A DNA stretch of 64,000 nt, taken from positions 79,980,001 through 80,044,000 of the forward strand of contig OZ024745.1 in assembly GCA_964016885.1 (NCBI GenBank), given 5' to 3'. The translations under genes were made by a program, and so were the position numbers. The notes beneath the pieces were generated by a model, which was not told the DNA's origin, made no database searches, and saw only the letters and a list, made by a program, of their open reading frames with translations. This document shows positions 1 to 55,602 of the stretch, in pieces (within the stretch, counting starts at the first letter, position 1; every line of letters begins with the position of its first letter). Source of the stretch: Eledone cirrhosa. Lineage: Eukaryota.

Positions 1-576
1 TGTATCACTAATAATCTCTACATGTGTCATGAAATTATGTCAAATTTGATAAAATTTTACGAGTATATGGCTATGAAGTTTATTCGAGATATGACAATTC
101 TGTGGTGACACATGATATGATAATTAATTATTTACCTGATAACTTCATTGATTTTGTGTCACCTAACAAAACTGAATTGACGTGTCATGAAAAATTAGAC
201 TTTTAGAAAGTGTATCGCCAGTGAGAAAAGTTTGGAAAACTTTGTTCTAGAAGAAATAATTCTGGTTTCTTAAAAAGCACAATAAAATATAAATATGGTA
301 TTTCATCTCACAGATGTATGTAAAACAAATTATTATTGTTGTACAAGACATGACAAAAAATGATTTTTCATTTACTTATATTTGCAAAATATATTAAAAA
401 CAATTTCTTTGGATTAAATTATTAAAAACCCAACAACTGCAAAGAATGTTATAATACATATTTTCAGTTTTTTTGTCAATTATTAAAGGTAAAAAAAAAC
501 AAATGTATAAAAAAAATATTACAATAAACAATAATTTCCATTCATTCAATAATAGATTCCTTATTCTTTGTGGTTC

Positions 577-970
577 AATCAATATATAATTAGAGTGGGT
601 ATTGATCTGGGGTATTGATTAGGCATGGGGTAGTAAGGAAATTATGGTGGGGTGGATGGGTGGATGTAATCAATATATAGCTAGGGTTGGTACAGATCTG
701 AAGTATTGATTAGGTGTGGGGTAGTGGGAGAAAGTGGTGAGGTGGGGTGGATGTAATCAATATATAGCTAGGGTTGGTACAGATCCGAAGTATTGATTAG
801 GTGTGGGGTAGTGGGAGAAAGTGGTGAGGTGGGGTGGATTTAATCAATATATAGCCATGGTAGGTATTGATCTGGGGTATTGATTAGGTGTTGGGTAGTG
901 AGAGAAAGTGATGGGGTGGGTGTAATTAATATATAGCTAGGGTGGGTATTGATCTGAAGTGTTGTTTAGG
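577..970. repeat. G-rich minisatellite, about 87-bp unit, 4-5 copies
   Basis: Repeated aatcaatatatagctagggttggtacagatctgaagtattgattaggtgtggggtagtgggagaaagtggtgaggtggggtggatgt. Confidence 0.9.
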
Positions 971-1336
971 TATGGGTGTGGATCTGTAGTATTTATGAGG
1001 TATTGATGTGTTTTAGACATTGATGGATGTAAGGAATACCTGGGATATTGTTGGGGTGAATAAGGATCTGGGATAGTGATGAAATGTGGAGCTGGATCTG
1101 GAAAATTGATGGTGGTGGTGGAAGAAGTGTCAGTATACTGAAAAAGTACTGTTGATTATACAGGATTTTTCACCATAGATTCTTGTAAAAATCACCTGCC
1201 TGTGAAAGGTATCCAGTGTTAAATTTGAAGTGTGCTGGAGTTTAGCCCAGTTTTCATGACTTTAAAGCAGTTGAGATACATACCTATCACTCTTGCCTCA
1301 ACCCCTATTTCTACTTCTGCTGTTCAACAGAAATTC

Positions 1337-1508
1337 CAAAATATTGCAGGTTTTACCCATGGACTGTTGTGATCTCCACACTGTAAGCAATCAAAATATT
1401 GCAGGTTTTCCCCATGGACTGTTGTGATCTCCACACTGTAAGCAATCAAAATATTGCAGGTTTTCCCCATGGACTGTTGTGATCTCCACACTGTAAGCGA
1501 TCAAAATA
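1337..1508. repeat. 55-bp tandem repeat, 3 copies
   Basis: caaaatattgcaggttttccccatggactgttgtgatctccacactgtaagcaat starts at 1337, 1392, 1447 and partially at 1502. Confidence 0.95.
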
Positions 1509-1747
1509 CTGATGAATCAAACAATCATCCTCCTGCCTACATCAATGAAATCTACCTACACATTATTAGCTATGGAAACTGGCTTATTAAAGTCATCATC
1601 ATCACCGTTTAATGTCCATCTTCCATACATTTCATTGTTCAATACACACACACGTACATACACTCCCAATAAGCATAAACCTAATATAACTGTATACAAT
1701 TGCCTCCTGTGTTTTGTTTGTTCATTTTCAACTAAATATATATATAA

Positions 1748-2138
1748 ATATTGTTATACTTTGGGAGGGTCATGCTGCCAATAAAAACACACGCACCTGT
1801 TGGTTTTCACTTCAATTTATTACGAATTTCCAGTTGGCTGGTTCGATAACCGGAAGGTTGTTTATATATTGTCAAAGCTCTTTCGTCACACATTCTGTGA
1901 CCTCCTCAGTGACTAGGTTTTTATTTTGTATCTCTCCTTTGTTCTGTCCTACGCCATCTTGTTTTTGTGATAACCTTCCAGTTATCGAACCAACCAAACC
2001 AACCAGAAATTTATAATAAATTGAAAACCAACAGGTGTGTGTGTTTTATTGGCAGCATGAGTCTCCCAAAGTATAACAATATCTGTTTCAACACACGTTT
2101 TCAGATAAGAAATCTTGCAAAACAAATTCAAAAACGAA
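1748..2138. mobile_element. ORF-less Penelope-like pLTR remnant with inverted arms (same family as 52520-55138)
   Basis: Arms 1748-1859 and 1972-2083 are reverse complements; sequence matches the pLTR at 52520-52819; flanked by (TA)n. Confidence 0.85.
1871..1913 (-). ncRNA. Minimal type I hammerhead ribozyme (family A)
   Basis: gtca-CTGAGGA-g-gtcaca gaatg tgtgac-GAAA-gagc-TT-tgac. Confidence 0.75.
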
Positions 2139-2171
2139 GTGTATATCTATCTATCTATATATATATATATT

Positions 2172-2374
2172 ACTTGCTTGCTTGTCTGTAATGTAATACA
2201 GCCAAAAGAGCGCATAATGGGAAAATACTTTGAAAGGAAGTTTACCCAAGATATGGGGTTTTTCCGGGTACCTTCATAAACAAAGAGAGAGAAAGAGATA
2301 GTGGTTGTGAGAGAGAGAGAAAGAGATAGTGGTTGTGAGACATAGAGTGAGAGAGAGAGGAGACATAGAAGGAG

Positions 2375-2418
<44 letters not shown>

Positions 2419-2910
2419 AGTGGTGGTGTTGTGTGTGTATATATATATATATATGTGTGTGTGTGAGTGTATGTGTGTATATATATATGTGTGTATGTGT
2501 GTCTGTGAGTGTCTATGACCAGTGTATATAAATCATAGACACCCACATATATATACACACACATACATATATATATATATGTATACAAACACACACATAC
2601 ACACACGTATATATATATCGGGTTTCCAGTTTCATTTCACATTATATACATGTCTGTGTATATTTTAATTATTTAAAATATATTTTGAAGTGAACGTGAC
2701 CCAACGTGTCACGAGTAGTCTGGTATAATACTAAAAGTCTGTGATTGCTTGCTTGCTTGTCTGTAATGTAATACAGCCAAAAGGGCGCATAATGGGAAAA
2801 TATTTTGAAAGGAAGTTGCCCCTGAAATGGGAATACAAATGGAATAAAATAAATTTCGCGTAAATCGAAGCACAGGTTCCCGTGATATGGAGTTTTCTGG
2901 GTACCTTCAT

Positions 2911-2954
<44 letters not shown>

Positions 2955-3130
2955 GATAGAGAGAAAGAGATAGTGGTTGTGAGAGAGTAGATTGAAAAAG
3001 AGACATAGAGAGAGGGAGAGAGAAGGAGAATGGGAGAGAGAAAGAGAGAAAGCTGGTGGAGTTGTTGTGTATATATGTGAGTGTGTGTGTCTATGACCAG
3101 TGTATATAGATCACAGACACCCACATATAT
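2172..3130 (+). mobile_element. Tandem (head-to-tail) non-autonomous Helitron-like repeat, about 580-bp unit with (GA)n and (GT)n tracts
   Basis: Unit start ttgcttgcttgtctgtaatgtaatacagcc at about 2174 and 2750; unit end acccaacgtgtcacgagtagtCTGG at 2720-2723 corresponds to acccaacgggtcacgggtggtCTAGT in the copy at about 20884-20909. Confidence 0.55.
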
Positions 3131-3576
3131 ATATAGAGAAATTTCTTTAGTCTAAAATACGGTGAAAGCTTATAATTTCTAATTTCTAATTTCAAACTCG
3201 CGCACCGTTTCAAAAACATACTTACATGTTTACATTTATAATTTGCTTGTATATATATATATATACACACACACACATTTATATGTATACATACATATAC
3301 ACACGTATATATAATGGTCTTCCAGTTTCTTTTCACATTATATATATGTCTGTATATATTTTTATATTTGGGGAGGGTCATATTTGCGTAATATTGCCAG
3401 AATTAATAACAGAACACACTCACTGTTTGGTTGGTTTTCGCTTCTCGCTGTCTTTTATATATATATATCTGCGATCTAACTTACTCGGTCCTCAATGTTG
3501 CCATTGACTGACCGGCGGTCAAAAATAATACAGATACAATATAGACAAACACATATATATATAGTTTACATAATTT

Positions 3577-3619
3577 ACATAAATCTTTCGTTGCACATCT
3601 GCAACATCGTCAGTGGTGT
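3577..3619 (-). ncRNA. Hammerhead ribozyme motif (family B), inverted-arm copy
   Basis: Exact reverse complement of the 4770-4812 motif. Confidence 0.7.
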
Positions 3620-4769
3620 TATATTCATTGTTCCTCCTGTTGTGTTGTATGTCTACGCCATTTTTTTTTGTTCAGTCTGTCTATATATTTATTTATTTAT
3701 TTGCTTGTTTGTTTATCTTATTTTATTTTGTCTTCTTTGCGCATGCGTTTGCGTGTGTGTATAGTGTTATGTGTGATGTGTGACTAGTGTGTATAGTGTT
3801 GTGTCTGCTGGGTGACTAGTGTGTGTTTATGTGCTTGTGTATGTATTTATTTATCTTATTTTATTTATTTTATTTAATTTACTTATTTATTTATACTTCT
3901 CTTAGGTCAGTGTTGTTTGTTTGGGTGTTGTTTAAGTGGGTCTTTCTCAGGGCCTTTCTACACTGGTTAGCTAAGCTAACCAGTGTAGAAAGGCCCTGAG
4001 AAAGACCCACTTAAAAATAAAGGTGGTAGAAAAGCCAGGAACCACCATAAAATCCCTGATCAGCAAAACCTACCCTTTTAAGAAAACCCACTGTACCAAT
4101 AGGAAATGTATCATATGTAAGGTGAACCCCCGGATAAACTGTAAAACTAGAAACGTAGTCTATAGCATAAGATGTACAGAGGGTACTTGCAGAAACACGA
4201 CAACAACATACATAGGTGAGACAGCTCGTAGCATAGGTGAAAGGATAGACCAACACTGGGGGGAACTAAAAGGACGAAAAAACGGGTCAGTACTATACGA
4301 ACATGCTAGACAACAACATGACGGTAACATAGACAACATAGAAATTAGAATAATATCTAAACATAGGAATGACCCAGCAGATAGGCAAATCAGAGAGGCC
4401 AGTGAAATAGAAATTAGAAGACCAAAGCTAAACAGAAAGAATGAGTGGAACAACAACAACATCCAAACAAACAACACTGACCTAAGAGAAGTATAAATAA
4501 ATAAGTAAATTAAATAAAATAAATAAAATAAGATAAATAAATACATACACAAGCACATAAACACACACTAGTCACCCAGCAGACACAACACTATACACAC
4601 TAGTCACACATCACACATAACACTATACACACACGCAAACGCATGCGCAAAGAAGACAAAATAAAATAAGATAAACAAACAAGCAAATAAATAAATAAAT
4701 ATATAGACAGACTGAACAAAAAAAAAAATGGCGTAGACATACAACACAACAGGAGGAACAATGAATATA

Positions 4770-4812
4770 ACACCACTGACGATGTTGCAGATGTGCAACG
4801 AAAGATTTATGT
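4770..4812 (+). ncRNA. Hammerhead ribozyme motif (family B)
   Basis: ca-CTGACGA-t-gttgca gatg tgcaac-GAAA-gatt-TA-tg; strong stem II, weak stem I. Confidence 0.7.
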
Positions 4813-5344
4813 AAATTATGTAAACTATATATATATGTGTTTGTCTATATTGTATCTGTATTATTTTTGACCGCCGGTCAGTCAATGGCAACATTGAGGA
4901 CCGAGTAAGTTAGATCGCAGATATATATATATAAAAGACAGCGAGAAGCGAAAACCAACCAAACAGTGAGTGTGTTCTGTTATTAATTCTGGCAATATTA
5001 CGCAAATATAACCCTCCCCAAATATAACAATATCTGTTTCGACACGATTTCATATAAAAAACCTCGCAAAACTAATTCATCGCCGCTATGTATATATTTT
5101 AATTGTTTAAAAACTATTTTTAGTGAACATGACTCACCAGGTTTAGTATACACATACGTGACACGTGAATACAGAGAGAAAGAGAAAGAGAAAGAGAGGG
5201 ACATAGAAAAGATAAGAATAAAATTATATGTAAACAGTTTATATTATGTTGTTTATTCCTTCATGATTCATGTAGATAATAAAATATCTCTAATGTAAGC
5301 TGATCCATTACATGTAAATCTAGGAGGGGTGTTTATTTCATGTA

Positions 5345-10646: not shown

Positions 10647-10770
10647 TATATTATAAAGAGTTGGGACCCCGACGGCTGAGCACTTGCTGTTTCAACAGCT
10701 AGTTCCATACTGGAACTAGCTGTTGAAACAGCAAGAGCTCAGCCGTCGGGGTCCCAACTCTTTATAATAT

Positions 10771-10771
<1 letters not shown>
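10647..10771. repeat. Near-perfect 61-bp-arm palindrome (3-nt loop)
   Basis: Arms 10647-10707 and 10711-10771 with one mismatch; arm is homologous to a single-copy repeat at about 33470-33515. Confidence 0.95.
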
Positions 10772-16704: not shown

Positions 16705-17179
16705 CTGGAGGTAAAGGGGATGATAAAGAGAGATGGTGAAAGAGAGAGAGAAAAACATTAAATGAATAAAATAAAGATAAAGATAAAGATAAAAGCAAAT
16801 TATTTTCCACAAATTATTTAAAAAAATTTTTTTTAATTAGATTTCCAAAATTTCTGTTGAATTTTAAAATTATGACAGCTATACACTACTTGGCAAATTT
16901 CAATCCCCAATTTTCTCAACCAGATTTGACAACTTATCGATCATTGAGTAATGCAAATACAAAAAGACTATGCTGGCTTTGAACTGGACTTATACCTTTG
17001 AACTACATTCTATCAATAACAGGTCATAAAGATTCACCTCTCTGTTTTTGTGGTGACTTTCCAAAAACTCTTTGGGACTATTTGTTCCAATGTAGCACTA
17101 TTTGTTCCAGTCTGAGAGAGAAGCCATGTTGAAACCAATCTTTAAAAAACTACCAAGATTAGAAGTTCAATATATGATT

Positions 17180-18344
<1,165 letters not shown>

Positions 18345-25957: not shown

Positions 25958-26375
25958 GTATATAGAAAATTATAAAAACATTATTAAAAACACCATAATC
26001 CAGATGAGTGTGAATAGCTTTTATTGTGTAACACTTACACGTGTTTCATCATATGTATTATATATAAGTCTTGGACTGCTAATTCTTTATTATTTCATTA
26101 TTTTAATCAAAATTAATTCACATCCAACTACTTAGATATTTAGTTACCATGAATTAACAAAGTGGAATGAGAAGGCAAGTATGAAAATTTATTGTAACTA
26201 CATATCTAAGTAGTTGGATGCGAATTAATTTTGATTAAAATAATGAAATAGTAAAAAATTAGTGGTCCAAGACTTATACATAATATATATGATGAAACGC
26301 GTGTAAGTGTTACACAATAAAAGCTATTCCCACTCATCTGGATTAAGGTGTTTTTAATAATATTTATCTATATAT
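25958..26375. mobile_element. Fold-back element, about 180-bp inverted arms, probably a Penelope pLTR derivative
   Basis: About 25975-26147 is the reverse complement of about 26193-26365; right arm has gaaacgcgt followed by AATAAA; (TA)n flanks. Confidence 0.7.
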
Positions 26376-34306: not shown

Positions 34307-34468
34307 AGTGTTGATGGTATCAGAGCCTTGGGACATATGGGATATGTCCCAAGGCTCTGATACCATCAACACTATAAACACAGAGCTGGCATGTCTAAGA
34401 ACTGACTAACTGCCTGAGGTCATAGCCATTCAATGGCTATCATCGAAATATATATAGCAGTAAATAAA

Positions 34469-52490: not shown

Positions 52491-52523
<33 letters not shown>

Positions 52524-52747
52524 CGTTTCTGAATTTGTTTAGCAAGATTCTTTATCTGAAATCGTGAGTTGAAACCGATATTGTTATACTTTGGGAGGGT
52601 CATGTTGCCAATAAGAAACACACGCACCAGTTGCTTTCACTTCAATTTATTATATATTTATAAATTTATAAATTTACAAATCTACAAACTTATAAATTTC
52701 TGGTTGGTTGGTTGGTTGGTTCCACAACCAGATAGTTGTTTATATAT

Positions 52748-52792
52748 AGTCATAGTCCTTTCGTCACACACTCTGTGACCTCTTCAGTGACT
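52748..52792 (-). ncRNA. Minimal type I hammerhead ribozyme (family A)
   Basis: agtca-CTGAAGA-g-gtcaca gagtg tgtgac-GAAA-ggac-TA-tgact. Confidence 0.85.
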
Positions 52793-54397
52793 GGGGATTC
52801 CTTTCTTTGTTTCTGTGCCTTTCCTTTCTTCTGTCCTACGCCATTTTGTTTCTGTGTGTGTGTTGTGTGCTCAGTTTGCGCATGCGCCACATCCGGGTGT
52901 CTGTGTGTGTTTGTGTTCATTTATCTATTTGTTTATTTATTTACATGTTGTTGGTTGGTTGTTTGTTCTATGTGTGTGTGTGTTTTCATTTTGTCCTTAA
53001 TTGTAAGTTGTGATGTTGCTGTTCCACTCATATTTTCTATTTAATTTTGGTTGTAATTCTTTTATGCTTACTGCCTCTGTAATTTGCCTAAACATTGCAT
53101 CTTTTCTGTGTGTGGATTCTATTTTTATTTCTATGTTCTCTAATTTACCCTTGTGTTCTATCTTAGCATGTTGGTAGAGTACAGATGATTCTTTATTATC
53201 TTGAAGGTCTCGCCAGTGTTCATTTATCCGTTCCCCTATACTACGAGCTGTCTCACCTATGTACACTATATTTTTGTTTCTACATTGTCCTTCAGTACAT
53301 CTTATGCTATACACTACATTTCTAGTTTTACAGTTAATATGGGGGCTTATTTTACAGGTTATACATTTCTTATCTATACATGAGGGTCTTTGGAACGGGT
53401 ATGTCTTCCTAATAAGTGTTTTTACAGAGGTACCTGGTCTTTCTACTATATTAATATTGAGTTTATGTTTATTTAGGGCCCTTCTAAATTTGTAGGCTAG
53501 TTCGCCTCTAGGGGTTGTATTGATGAACATTACACTCTGGTATTTATTGCTATCATACCATGAGTTTATTCTATTGGCCTTGTTCCTAGTTCTTTCTATT
53601 CTATTCCAAAATTTGCTCCTATACAAGGGGCAGGTCCCATTTATGTCATTATTTACCATTTTTTCCCATTTGGTTCTGGCTCCTCTATACACTCTGATTC
53701 TATCTCTCTGATTGTAGCCAGAGAACTGCATACGGTGGATGAAGTGTTGTATGTGTCTCTCTAGTTCTTCGGGGTTGCACATGCGGGACACATTTCTCAT
53801 CACCCGTACCAAATCCGCAATCAGTATGTTGATTTTGGTATGGTCCGAAATGGCCGAGTTTTGGTGGATCAGATGTTTGGAAGTCATGGGTTTGGCATAA
53901 TGGGAATGGAGGATTTGTTTTTAGTTGTTAATGGTATCTAACCAGAGCTCTGTGTCTAGTACAGGTAATCGATGGTTGGGGTGTCTACTTGGGTAGTCTA
54001 TAGTAACTCTAATGCTCTGGTGGATGGAGTTTTCTATTTGCTGGATGCTTTCCATTGTGTTTTTCTCTAGTTCCTGACTGTTCTCTAGTGGGGGTGTCTT
54101 AACTACGATGTTTATATCATCTACGTAGCGGGAGTACATTATCAGGGTTAAGCTGTCTTCTAATTGTTCTTTAAGTTTAAGTTTAAGTCTACTGTCCCAC
54201 CATACCATGAATAAGTTAGCTATGTCGCCTGCAATGCTAACACCAATGGCTGCTCCTTCCTCTTGGGCATATGTTTTTCCATTAAATTTGAACATATGTT
54301 CCTTAAGGGTTAATTTTATGCTGGCCCCTACCGCATGTGCAATCATTTTCTTCAGTTCATCGTGGTTTTTGGCACAGAAACAAAGAAAGGAATCCCC

Positions 54398-54442
54398 AGT
54401 CACTGAAGAGGTCACAGAGTGTGTGACGAAAGGACTATGACT
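54398..54442 (+). ncRNA. Minimal type I hammerhead ribozyme (family A), inverted pLTR copy
   Basis: Identical to the 52748-52792 motif on the opposite strand. Confidence 0.85.
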
Positions 54443-54774
54443 ATATATAAACAACTATCTGGTTGTGGAACCAACCAACCAACCAGAAATTTATAAGTTT
54501 GTAGATTTGTAAATTTATAAATTTATAAATATATAATAAATTGAAGTGAAAGCAGCTGGTGCGTGTGTTTCTTATTGGCAACATGACCTTCCCAAAGTAT
54601 AACAATATCGGTTTCAACACACGATTTCAGGTAAAGAATCTTGCTAAACAAATTCAGAAACGAAATATCGTAAGCCTTAGCCAGGCTAACAAGATACTGA
54701 AAACCACCATGTTCTGTTGTCTACGAAAAACCATAACATCTCGACAACTATCCTTCATAAAGCAGTGTTTAGAC

Positions 54775-55138
54775 AAAGCACTGTTTAGACAAATCACAGA
54801 GGCAATAAACATAAATGAACTCCAACCAAAATTAAATTGAAAACATGAATGGAATAGCAACATCATAACTTACAATTAAGGACAAAATGAAAACACACAC
54901 ACACACATAGAACAAACAACCAACCAGTAACATGTAAATAAACAAATAAATAAACAAATATAAACACACACAGACACCCGGATGTAACACATGCGCAAAC
55001 TAAGCACACAACACACACAAAAACAAGATGGCGTAGGACAGAACAAAGGAGAGGCACAAAAACAAAGAAAAGAATCCCCAGTCACTGAAGAGGTCACAGA
55101 ATGTGTGTCGAAAGAACTTTGACAATATATGAACAACC
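54775..55138 (+). mobile_element. Second Penelope 3' fragment (family A), cut off by a SINE
   Basis: ALFRQITEAININELQPKLN then pLTR sequence; SINE head begins at about 55138. Confidence 0.85.
55081..55123 (+). ncRNA. Minimal type I hammerhead ribozyme (family A)
   Basis: gtca-CTGAAGA-g-gtcaca gaatg tgtgtc-GAAA-gaac-TT-tgac; one stem II mismatch. Confidence 0.7.
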
Positions 55139-55602
55139 GCATGGCTTAGTGGTTAGAGCATTGGCTTGCAATCGAAAGGTTGTGAGTTCAATTCTCAGAC
55201 CGGGTGATGTGTTGTTTCCTTGAGCAAGACACTTTATTTCACATTGCTCCAGTATACTCAGCTGTAGAAATGAGATGATAGGGCTGGGGTCCCTATCATT
55301 CCACTACAAAGTGGTCGTGGAGGTGCCACGGCAAATAAACCACCCAGCCCACACTGTAAAGTGGACGTGTAGGCGCCACGGAAAAAAAAAGCACCCAGCA
55401 CTCACTGTAAATGAGGTTGGTGTTAGGAAGGGCATACAGCTGTAGAAATCAAGCCAGAATCAGTCCCCGTAAGAGCAAGACAAGGTCAGCCGACCGGGGA
55501 CTGCCCACAACAGGACAAGTCCAACCCTTACAAGCAGGAAAAAGCGGACGTAAAATGATGATGATGATGATGACAAAGAATATATAACAATTCCTGCTTT
55601 AC

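Follow-up and report, generated by a model that had tools for sequence, protein, structure and literature searches.

Palindromes have been described at the inverted junctions of EN+ Penelope elements in Adineta vaga, where they were interpreted as traces of self-priming (PMC3846280, in the portion of the article available). For R2, "snap-back" forms a minority class of 5' junctions beside the "anneal" and "join" classes, according to the accessible text of the PRINT study (PMC11371274). Palindromes at the inverted junctions of Penelope-like elements (PLEs) and R2 snap-back junctions are, in other words, already published. Two start sites of reverse transcription, which define the tail, are reported in the available part of PMC11167929 for PAc, the Poseidon element of Anolis carolinensis. 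The Neptune, Nematis and Naiad PLEs form complex tandem and inverted units, and the available portion of PMC8557442 tentatively attributes the tail to resolution by the endonuclease, treats the origin of the units as open and makes no mention of junction hairpins ("palindrom" and "self-prim" each occur 0 times there). Searches of largely open-access main texts found no tally of hairpins at PLE junctions, no survey of how arm ends pair and no description of a hairpin intermediate for retroelements.

Here, we analysed a PLE insertion in a 64-kb stretch (64,000 nucleotides, hereafter the window) of the genome of Eledone cirrhosa, which carries a perfect hairpin at its 5' truncation point, together with sister loci from the same genome. 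How the inverted structures of PLEs originate is called an unsolved question in the accessible text of PMC8557442, and the young family to which this insertion belongs separates the models that can be proposed for it. What this family adds is that a minority of junctions carry hairpins formed de novo, at points of truncation that differ between copies, within an insertion pattern that points to two cDNAs. The single hairpin of the window would on its own be a modest finding.

The window insertion and its element family

The insertion (L143 in our sample, L numbers denoting sampled loci) is flanked as a whole by a 12-nt target-site duplication, with the left copy (TGTATATATTTT) at 3351..3362 and the right copy at 5089..5100, the first 2 nt of which also match the element. 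Between these copies lie, in order, an inverted arm consisting of the last ORF codons and the pLTR (3363..3932, minus strand), an inverted ORF piece of 44 nt, and a forward arm (3974-5090) that ends in a 3' tail (5034..5090, plus strand), a tail present on the forward arm only and reaching reference position 4153. The reference copy is L066, a natural full-length copy with a unit of 4,137 nt, on which the inverted arm corresponds to positions 4094 to 3523; this arm ends at the untailed site and is likely a second cDNA. It matches the mirrored segment of ORF end and pLTR in the forward arm (4455..5033, plus strand) at 99%, the two pLTR arms differing by two substitutions and one 2-nt indel. When the flanks of the insertion are rejoined, they resemble a repeat at 2601-2720, which makes it likely that a single event brought in the entire structure.

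The hairpin arms, 3931..3972 (minus strand) and 3974..4015 (plus strand), are exact reverse complements over 42 bp around a loop of 1 nt (A3973, 3973..3973), just as the original prediction had described them, and the next bases outward from the arms are unpaired. With a loop of at most 10 nt, 3931-4015 is the longest perfect hairpin in the window, the runner-up non-repeat perfect hairpins having arms of 32 and 25 bp. The 5'-truncated forward copy begins with the 42 nt of the right arm, which opens a frame that starts at 3975 (ANQCRKALRKTHL) and runs for 173 codons to a stop at 4496. The right arm is coding sequence with a homologue in the related copy at 53 kb (AYKFRRALNKHKL), and the left arm is joined directly to the inverted pLTR, both as originally predicted; the join has a 2-nt overlap, or microhomology, at 3931-3932. 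Together with 3973-3974 the left arm makes up the 44-nt inverted ORF piece, whose 5' limit in the element lies 2 nt beyond that of the forward arm; between this piece and the inverted arm, 441 nt of element sequence are absent. The fold, with the physical loop TAA, is placed on a native 8-bp palindrome, TTAGCTAA, that is also present in the full-length reference copy, and its loop reads as native antisense on the top strand.

At the fold site L066 has just this 8-bp palindrome and no hairpin, and a genome-wide pattern for the fold at this site matched the window locus alone, out of 3,605 places where a 20-mer taken from the hairpin arm matches exactly. Rather than occupying a fixed position in full-length elements, the counter-case that had been named beforehand, the hairpin is absent from full-length copies and arose de novo. 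Its reading as a miRNA precursor was rejected; all Rfam miRNA matches fell below the gathering score and both strands matched, as any perfect hairpin would give. Three other long inverted repeats occur in the window, at 10647-10771 (125 nt, 96%), 34307-34373 (32-bp arms, 3-nt loop) and 25976-26365 (185-nt arms), none with a second copy within the 64 kb.

A protein search for the family returned at least 150 matches at 99-100% identity, several of them with 1,217-1,218 open codons. Full-length copies have one frame of 1,217 codons with the motifs DKSG, YVDD and VVY..C..C..YIG in that order, i.e., the single ORF with an RT followed by a GIY-YIG-type endonuclease that is typical of EN+ Penelope-like elements. 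Partial-tandem pLTRs, an inverted 5'-truncated copy and a tail at one end are likewise present, as is VVYSIRCTEGTCRNTTTTYIG with histidines next in the translation, a feature of this group in the available text of PMC8557442. The last 173 codons (3975..4496, plus strand) contain a CX4CXXC linker, CTNRKCIIC, before the GIY-YIG-type endonuclease. Members of the Penelope/Poseidon clade have no CX2-5CxxC linker at that place; Neptune and Nematis have one and target (TA)n, which makes up most flanks of this family. By the linker rule given for the clades in the accessible part of PMC8557442, the window element is of predicted Neptune/Nematis type, and the "Penelope ORF" of the original prediction holds in the sense of Penelope-like and not of Penelope/Poseidon proper.

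Pfam searches gave no match for the whole protein or for the 173-aa piece; for the 53-kb relative they gave RVT_1, which with an E value of 1.4e-4 was below the cutoff. A motif scan marked a candidate hammerhead-like core (CTGACGA, 6-bp stem, GAAA) in the pLTR at 4776..4803 (plus strand); the Rfam hammerhead search gave no match for it at E up to 5, and the minimum-energy fold around the core did not produce the ribozyme shape. The N-terminal ORF part of the reference copy (L066:3169-6822) has a long asparagine-rich stretch that recalls the N-rich inserts of Adineta Penelopes. On contig C28, at ~42.00-42.06 Mb (L008-L010, L021-L027, L102), whole units are repeated in tandem every ~4.15 kb, and several of them have 1,218 open codons. 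Within the window, the 53-kb copy (52512-55150; 64% protein identity to a full-length family member) also has an inverted arm and adjoins another ORF-end fragment on the other strand, and neither of its junctions has a hairpin of more than 6 bp. A short, older inverted pLTR pair from a related PLE lies at 1740-2137, and two adjoining frames at 17096-18127 resemble a Tc1/mariner transposase.

Arm ends and junction hairpins at the sister loci

Sister loci were collected in two samples. The first comprised 140 of the 150 protein matches listed, the other 10 being further units of one tandem array; it formed 121 clusters, of which 120 were fetched, and was restricted to copies at least as long as the window copy. 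The second search used the last 65 codons as query and found nearly all of its matches on contig C1; 80 of its 95 new clusters were drawn at random, and 17 loci arrived with the search. We parsed 214 of the 217 loci, which fell into insertions with an inverted arm from the 3' end (n=111), forward-only copies (n=71), other inversions (n=16) and copies cut by the locus edge (n=16).

Arm ends form two classes on the reference, untailed at ~4087-4094 and tailed at ~4137-4153. Among the 102 inverted insertions with both ends classed (9 of the 111 were unclassifiable), a tailed arm is paired with an untailed one in 99 and only 3 are homotypic (p ~3e-26), the heterotypic pairs being about equally divided between the two orientations (54 and 45). 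Forward-only copies are mostly untailed (51, with 12 tailed and 8 other). In 46 inverted insertions the tail is on the shorter arm and absent from the longer, non-tandem one, which rules out that either arm was copied from its partner. The same holds for L031 and L263, which are built in three parts like the window copy and have the tail on the arm that lacks the long ORF stretch. As a rule, fold-back does not make the inverted arm. The near-strict pairing, possibly more informative than the hairpin itself, favours two separate primings over fold-back as the origin of the inverted pLTR, and the simplest reading of the arms is that they represent two target-primed cDNAs of one source element. 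That reading fits the two start sites and the two-strand cutting of PAc in vitro, and the two PAc start sites match the two end classes found here, as far as the available part of PMC11167929 describes them.

Minor alleles are shared by both arms of an insertion in 95 cases and restricted to one arm in 17, compared with 335 and 2,039 for arms from unrelated loci, and the arms diverge by 0.31% within an insertion versus 0.96% in the comparison. Such sharing indicates that both arms derive from one source element, an outcome that is the same for fold-back copying and for two templates and that fits equally well with one RNA, the copying of one cDNA, or gene conversion.

Hairpins with an arm of at least 9 and a loop of at most 20 were present at 14 of 207 testable 5' junctions, the window locus included, whereas 30 shuffles of left versus right sides yielded 1.2 on average and never more than 5. 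With arms of at least 15 the count is 9, against 0.9 after shuffling, and 12 hairpin junctions are left without the window locus and L071, whose stem is partly native. They range from reference position 167 to 4073, so the enrichment of junction palindromes at variable ORF positions that had been proposed as a test was indeed found. As a general footprint of PLE integration, the original claim was overstated, given that 193 of the 207 junctions have no hairpin. Another four site-directed patterns matched 3, 2, 1 and 5 junctions with palindromes, and 8 of these were additional to the set. Of 95 simple head-to-head junctions, 70 are free of inserts and have a mean microhomology of 1.9 nt, against 0.6 nt by chance. 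Fold-back thus recurs in the family, and plain microhomology joins make up most head-to-head junctions. Short hairpins are found beside an inverted arm (L031, L216, L229, L250, L263) and also directly against target DNA (L135, L142, L167, L211, L220, L246), which suggests that folding is a step of end processing and not the source of the inverted arm.

Two possible determinants of the fold sites were discarded. Native palindromes are unsupported as a general trigger, their arms at the 14 fold sites being barely longer than at random sites (mean 3.5 versus 3.2). A truncation hot spot at the window palindrome was rejected as well, since 4 other ends in the first sample and 0 in the second fall at reference 3038-3044 and ~1.4 are expected by estimate from the local density. 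L135 and L246, on different contigs, have the same fold junction (reference 2932/2934), and the fold of L263 lies 4 nt off. At the junctions of L036, L093, L129, L130, L132, L136 and L202, the forward copy starts with a short stretch (16-57 nt) that is directly duplicated, as if from repeated cycles of annealing and extension. L121 contains a tail-to-tail pLTR hairpin with 191-bp arms, the entire inversion junction of L165 is repeated twice, and twin-priming-like internal 5' inversions without overlap were seen at L033, L075, L092, L159, L175 and L259.

Formation of the window hairpin

With a probability of roughly 0.6, a fold-back of one kind or another made the window hairpin, which was then joined to what is likely a second cDNA. 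Reverse transcription would be primed from both target strands, with one cDNA starting at the tailed site and the other at the untailed site of RNA that comes from a single source element; the long cDNA would stop near the 8-bp palindrome, and its 3' end would fold back and prime on itself. The self-primed strand could then continue as the second strand, after which an off-centre nick in the cDNA strand, at a distance of 44 nt from the tip, would open the closed hairpin and be followed by fill-in, a course of events that we regard as the likeliest variant though somewhat short of even odds. A brief snap-back of 42 nt with slippage is a rather unlikely variant. End joining to the second cDNA, on the other target strand, via the 2-nt microhomology would complete the structure, with the RT and endonuclease of the element or host repair as candidates for the folding, opening and joining. 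Taken as one chain, a stalled cDNA that self-primes a full second strand, a closed hairpin end opened off-centre and two target-primed cDNAs from one source RNA make up a scenario that we put forward tentatively.

The polarity of the loop bears on these variants. At the window locus TAA is native on the strand that carries the long sense arm (3 of 3 bases, versus 1 of 3 on the cDNA strand), which hints at a self-primed hairpin opened off-centre and also follows from two cDNAs ending together with a skip in the second. The bases 3931-3974 are the reverse complement of the first forward bases, as in snap-back junctions; a brief snap-back would in addition leave the loop native on the cDNA strand, which is not the case in the window copy, whereas L211, L216, L220 and L142 look like this. 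Within this small set, the loop is native on the long sense arm strand also at L250, L246 and L270, as well as at L135 and L229 when a 1-nt deletion is allowed, and it is symmetric or ambiguous at L031, L214, L263 and L271 and half native at L167. The priming stem at the window junction is poor, with one A-T pair around the 1-nt loop, so that an untemplated base or slippage must be assumed there.

The alternatives differ mainly in how the second arm came about. It is unlikely, in our estimate, that no fold-back occurred and that two cDNAs instead reached the same broken 5' end of one RNA, the second having skipped 441 nt or an internal primer having copied the last 44 nt in a twin-priming-like manner, before the ends were joined by 1 nt of microhomology. 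Such a shared RNA end avoids a sterically strained loop, accounts for the extra 2 nt at the 5' side of the inverted piece and agrees with the alleles common to both arms, and both internal skips (L061, L184, L203, L228) and twin-priming-type inversions (L033, L075, L092, L159, L259) occur in the family. It also allows either arm to reach farther in the palindromes that involve whole arms with tailed and untailed ends (L096, L222, L266, L267, L268, L272), and L267 and L268 favour it for their class, because there the untailed arm reaches farther 5', which is impossible for a pure fold-back copy and possible for two cDNAs at one RNA end. However, by a rough estimate, two uncommon events would have to coincide, with the skip within ~50 nt of the common end, and yet several of the 214 insertions are three-part short hairpins (L031, L143, L216, L229, L250); moreover, the self-priming geometry of L211, L216 and L220 is clean, with 2-5 primer pairs. 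The full model of the original prediction, in which one cDNA snapped back over 42 nt and switched template on itself to yield the inverted pLTR, is improbable even for the window locus, where the geometry would permit it, with a tail on the long arm, every base of the inverted arm contained in that arm and the arms 99% alike. As a general rule it is excluded by the tail pattern, namely the insertions with the tail on the short arm instead of the long one, the near-equal frequency of the two orientations, the three-part build of L031 and L263 with the tail on the other arm, and the need for the copy to stop unaided at the untailed site of the family. The fold-back of the cDNA end is retained from that model as the best reading, being de novo and recurrent; the same-strand switch to the inverted pLTR is not, given the 99 of 102 heterotypic pairs and the 46 cases.

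Two further explanations concern events after or outside the insertion process. A later deletion, in which an original full palindrome of ~1.1 kb per arm lost 441 nt from one of them, is quite improbable: palindromes of whole arms do exist in the family (L096, L266, L267, L268, L272) and 2 nt are common to the deletion ends, but six short hairpins abut target DNA without any second arm. Deletions that stabilise a palindrome usually take out its centre, which is still perfect here. Highly improbable is a fold-back chimera of the assembly or the library, since the target duplication bounds the structure, the flanks rejoin to a recognisable repeat, the pLTR arms differ from each other, and sister hairpins have differences between their arms (L135, L246, L096). 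Logan contigs compared with 3893-4300 show the family at high depth and no junction-bridging piece among those listed, in four runs of one study that represent at most two samples and possibly another individual or species, and this speaks neither for nor against a chimera. The preferred reading remains a fold-back at the cDNA end followed by joining to a second cDNA, and hairpins of this kind would be a recurring side product of insertion, whose loop polarity provides a direct test for a self-primed hairpin intermediate.

Comparison with known systems

The Neptune, Nematis and Naiad units of PMC8557442 resemble the Eledone insertions, in the text available, in having an inverted 5'-truncated copy at the 5' end with a tail on either side, (TA)n targets and a CX2-5CxxC linker. 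PAc is alike in that both target strands are cut and extended, targets are AT-rich and a dimer is predicted, and the accessible part of PMC11167929 does not treat inverted insertions or 5' junctions. Unlike PAc, the window family has a CX4CXXC linker and a tail of 43-59 nt. The Penelopes of Adineta vaga share, in the available portion of PMC3846280, the head-to-head inverted pLTR, the tail on one arm, the target duplication, the junction palindrome and N-rich inserts in the ORF; their palindromes of 18 and 38 bp, however, lie at the pLTR's 5' end, and the template proposed for the priming is an antisense one. The Eledone hairpins, in contrast, are found at a minority of junctions, at ORF positions that vary, and the pattern of arm ends speaks for two cDNAs. 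R2 snap-back, as described in the accessible text of PMC11371274, is similar in that the 3' end of the cDNA primes on the cDNA itself before the 5' junction is made; the partner at the junction is target rDNA in R2 and often a second inverted copy here. In about half of the short hairpins of the family, the loop lies on the strand opposite to the one expected from a brief snap-back.

In V(D)J recombination, where the added bases are known as P nucleotides, and in hAT footprints, an off-centre nick in a hairpin end followed by fill-in leaves a short perfect palindrome at the joined end, typically of a few nt. If the self-primed hairpin was indeed opened off-centre, this intermediate would have left its genomic trace in the form of P-nucleotide-like palindromes, 10-200 bp long, where copies are truncated. 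The palindromes of this family, unlike those of V(D)J joints and hAT footprints, are 9-44 nt or more in length and stand at the cDNA end of a retroelement, where a closed hairpin may have been an intermediate on the way to the joined insertion.
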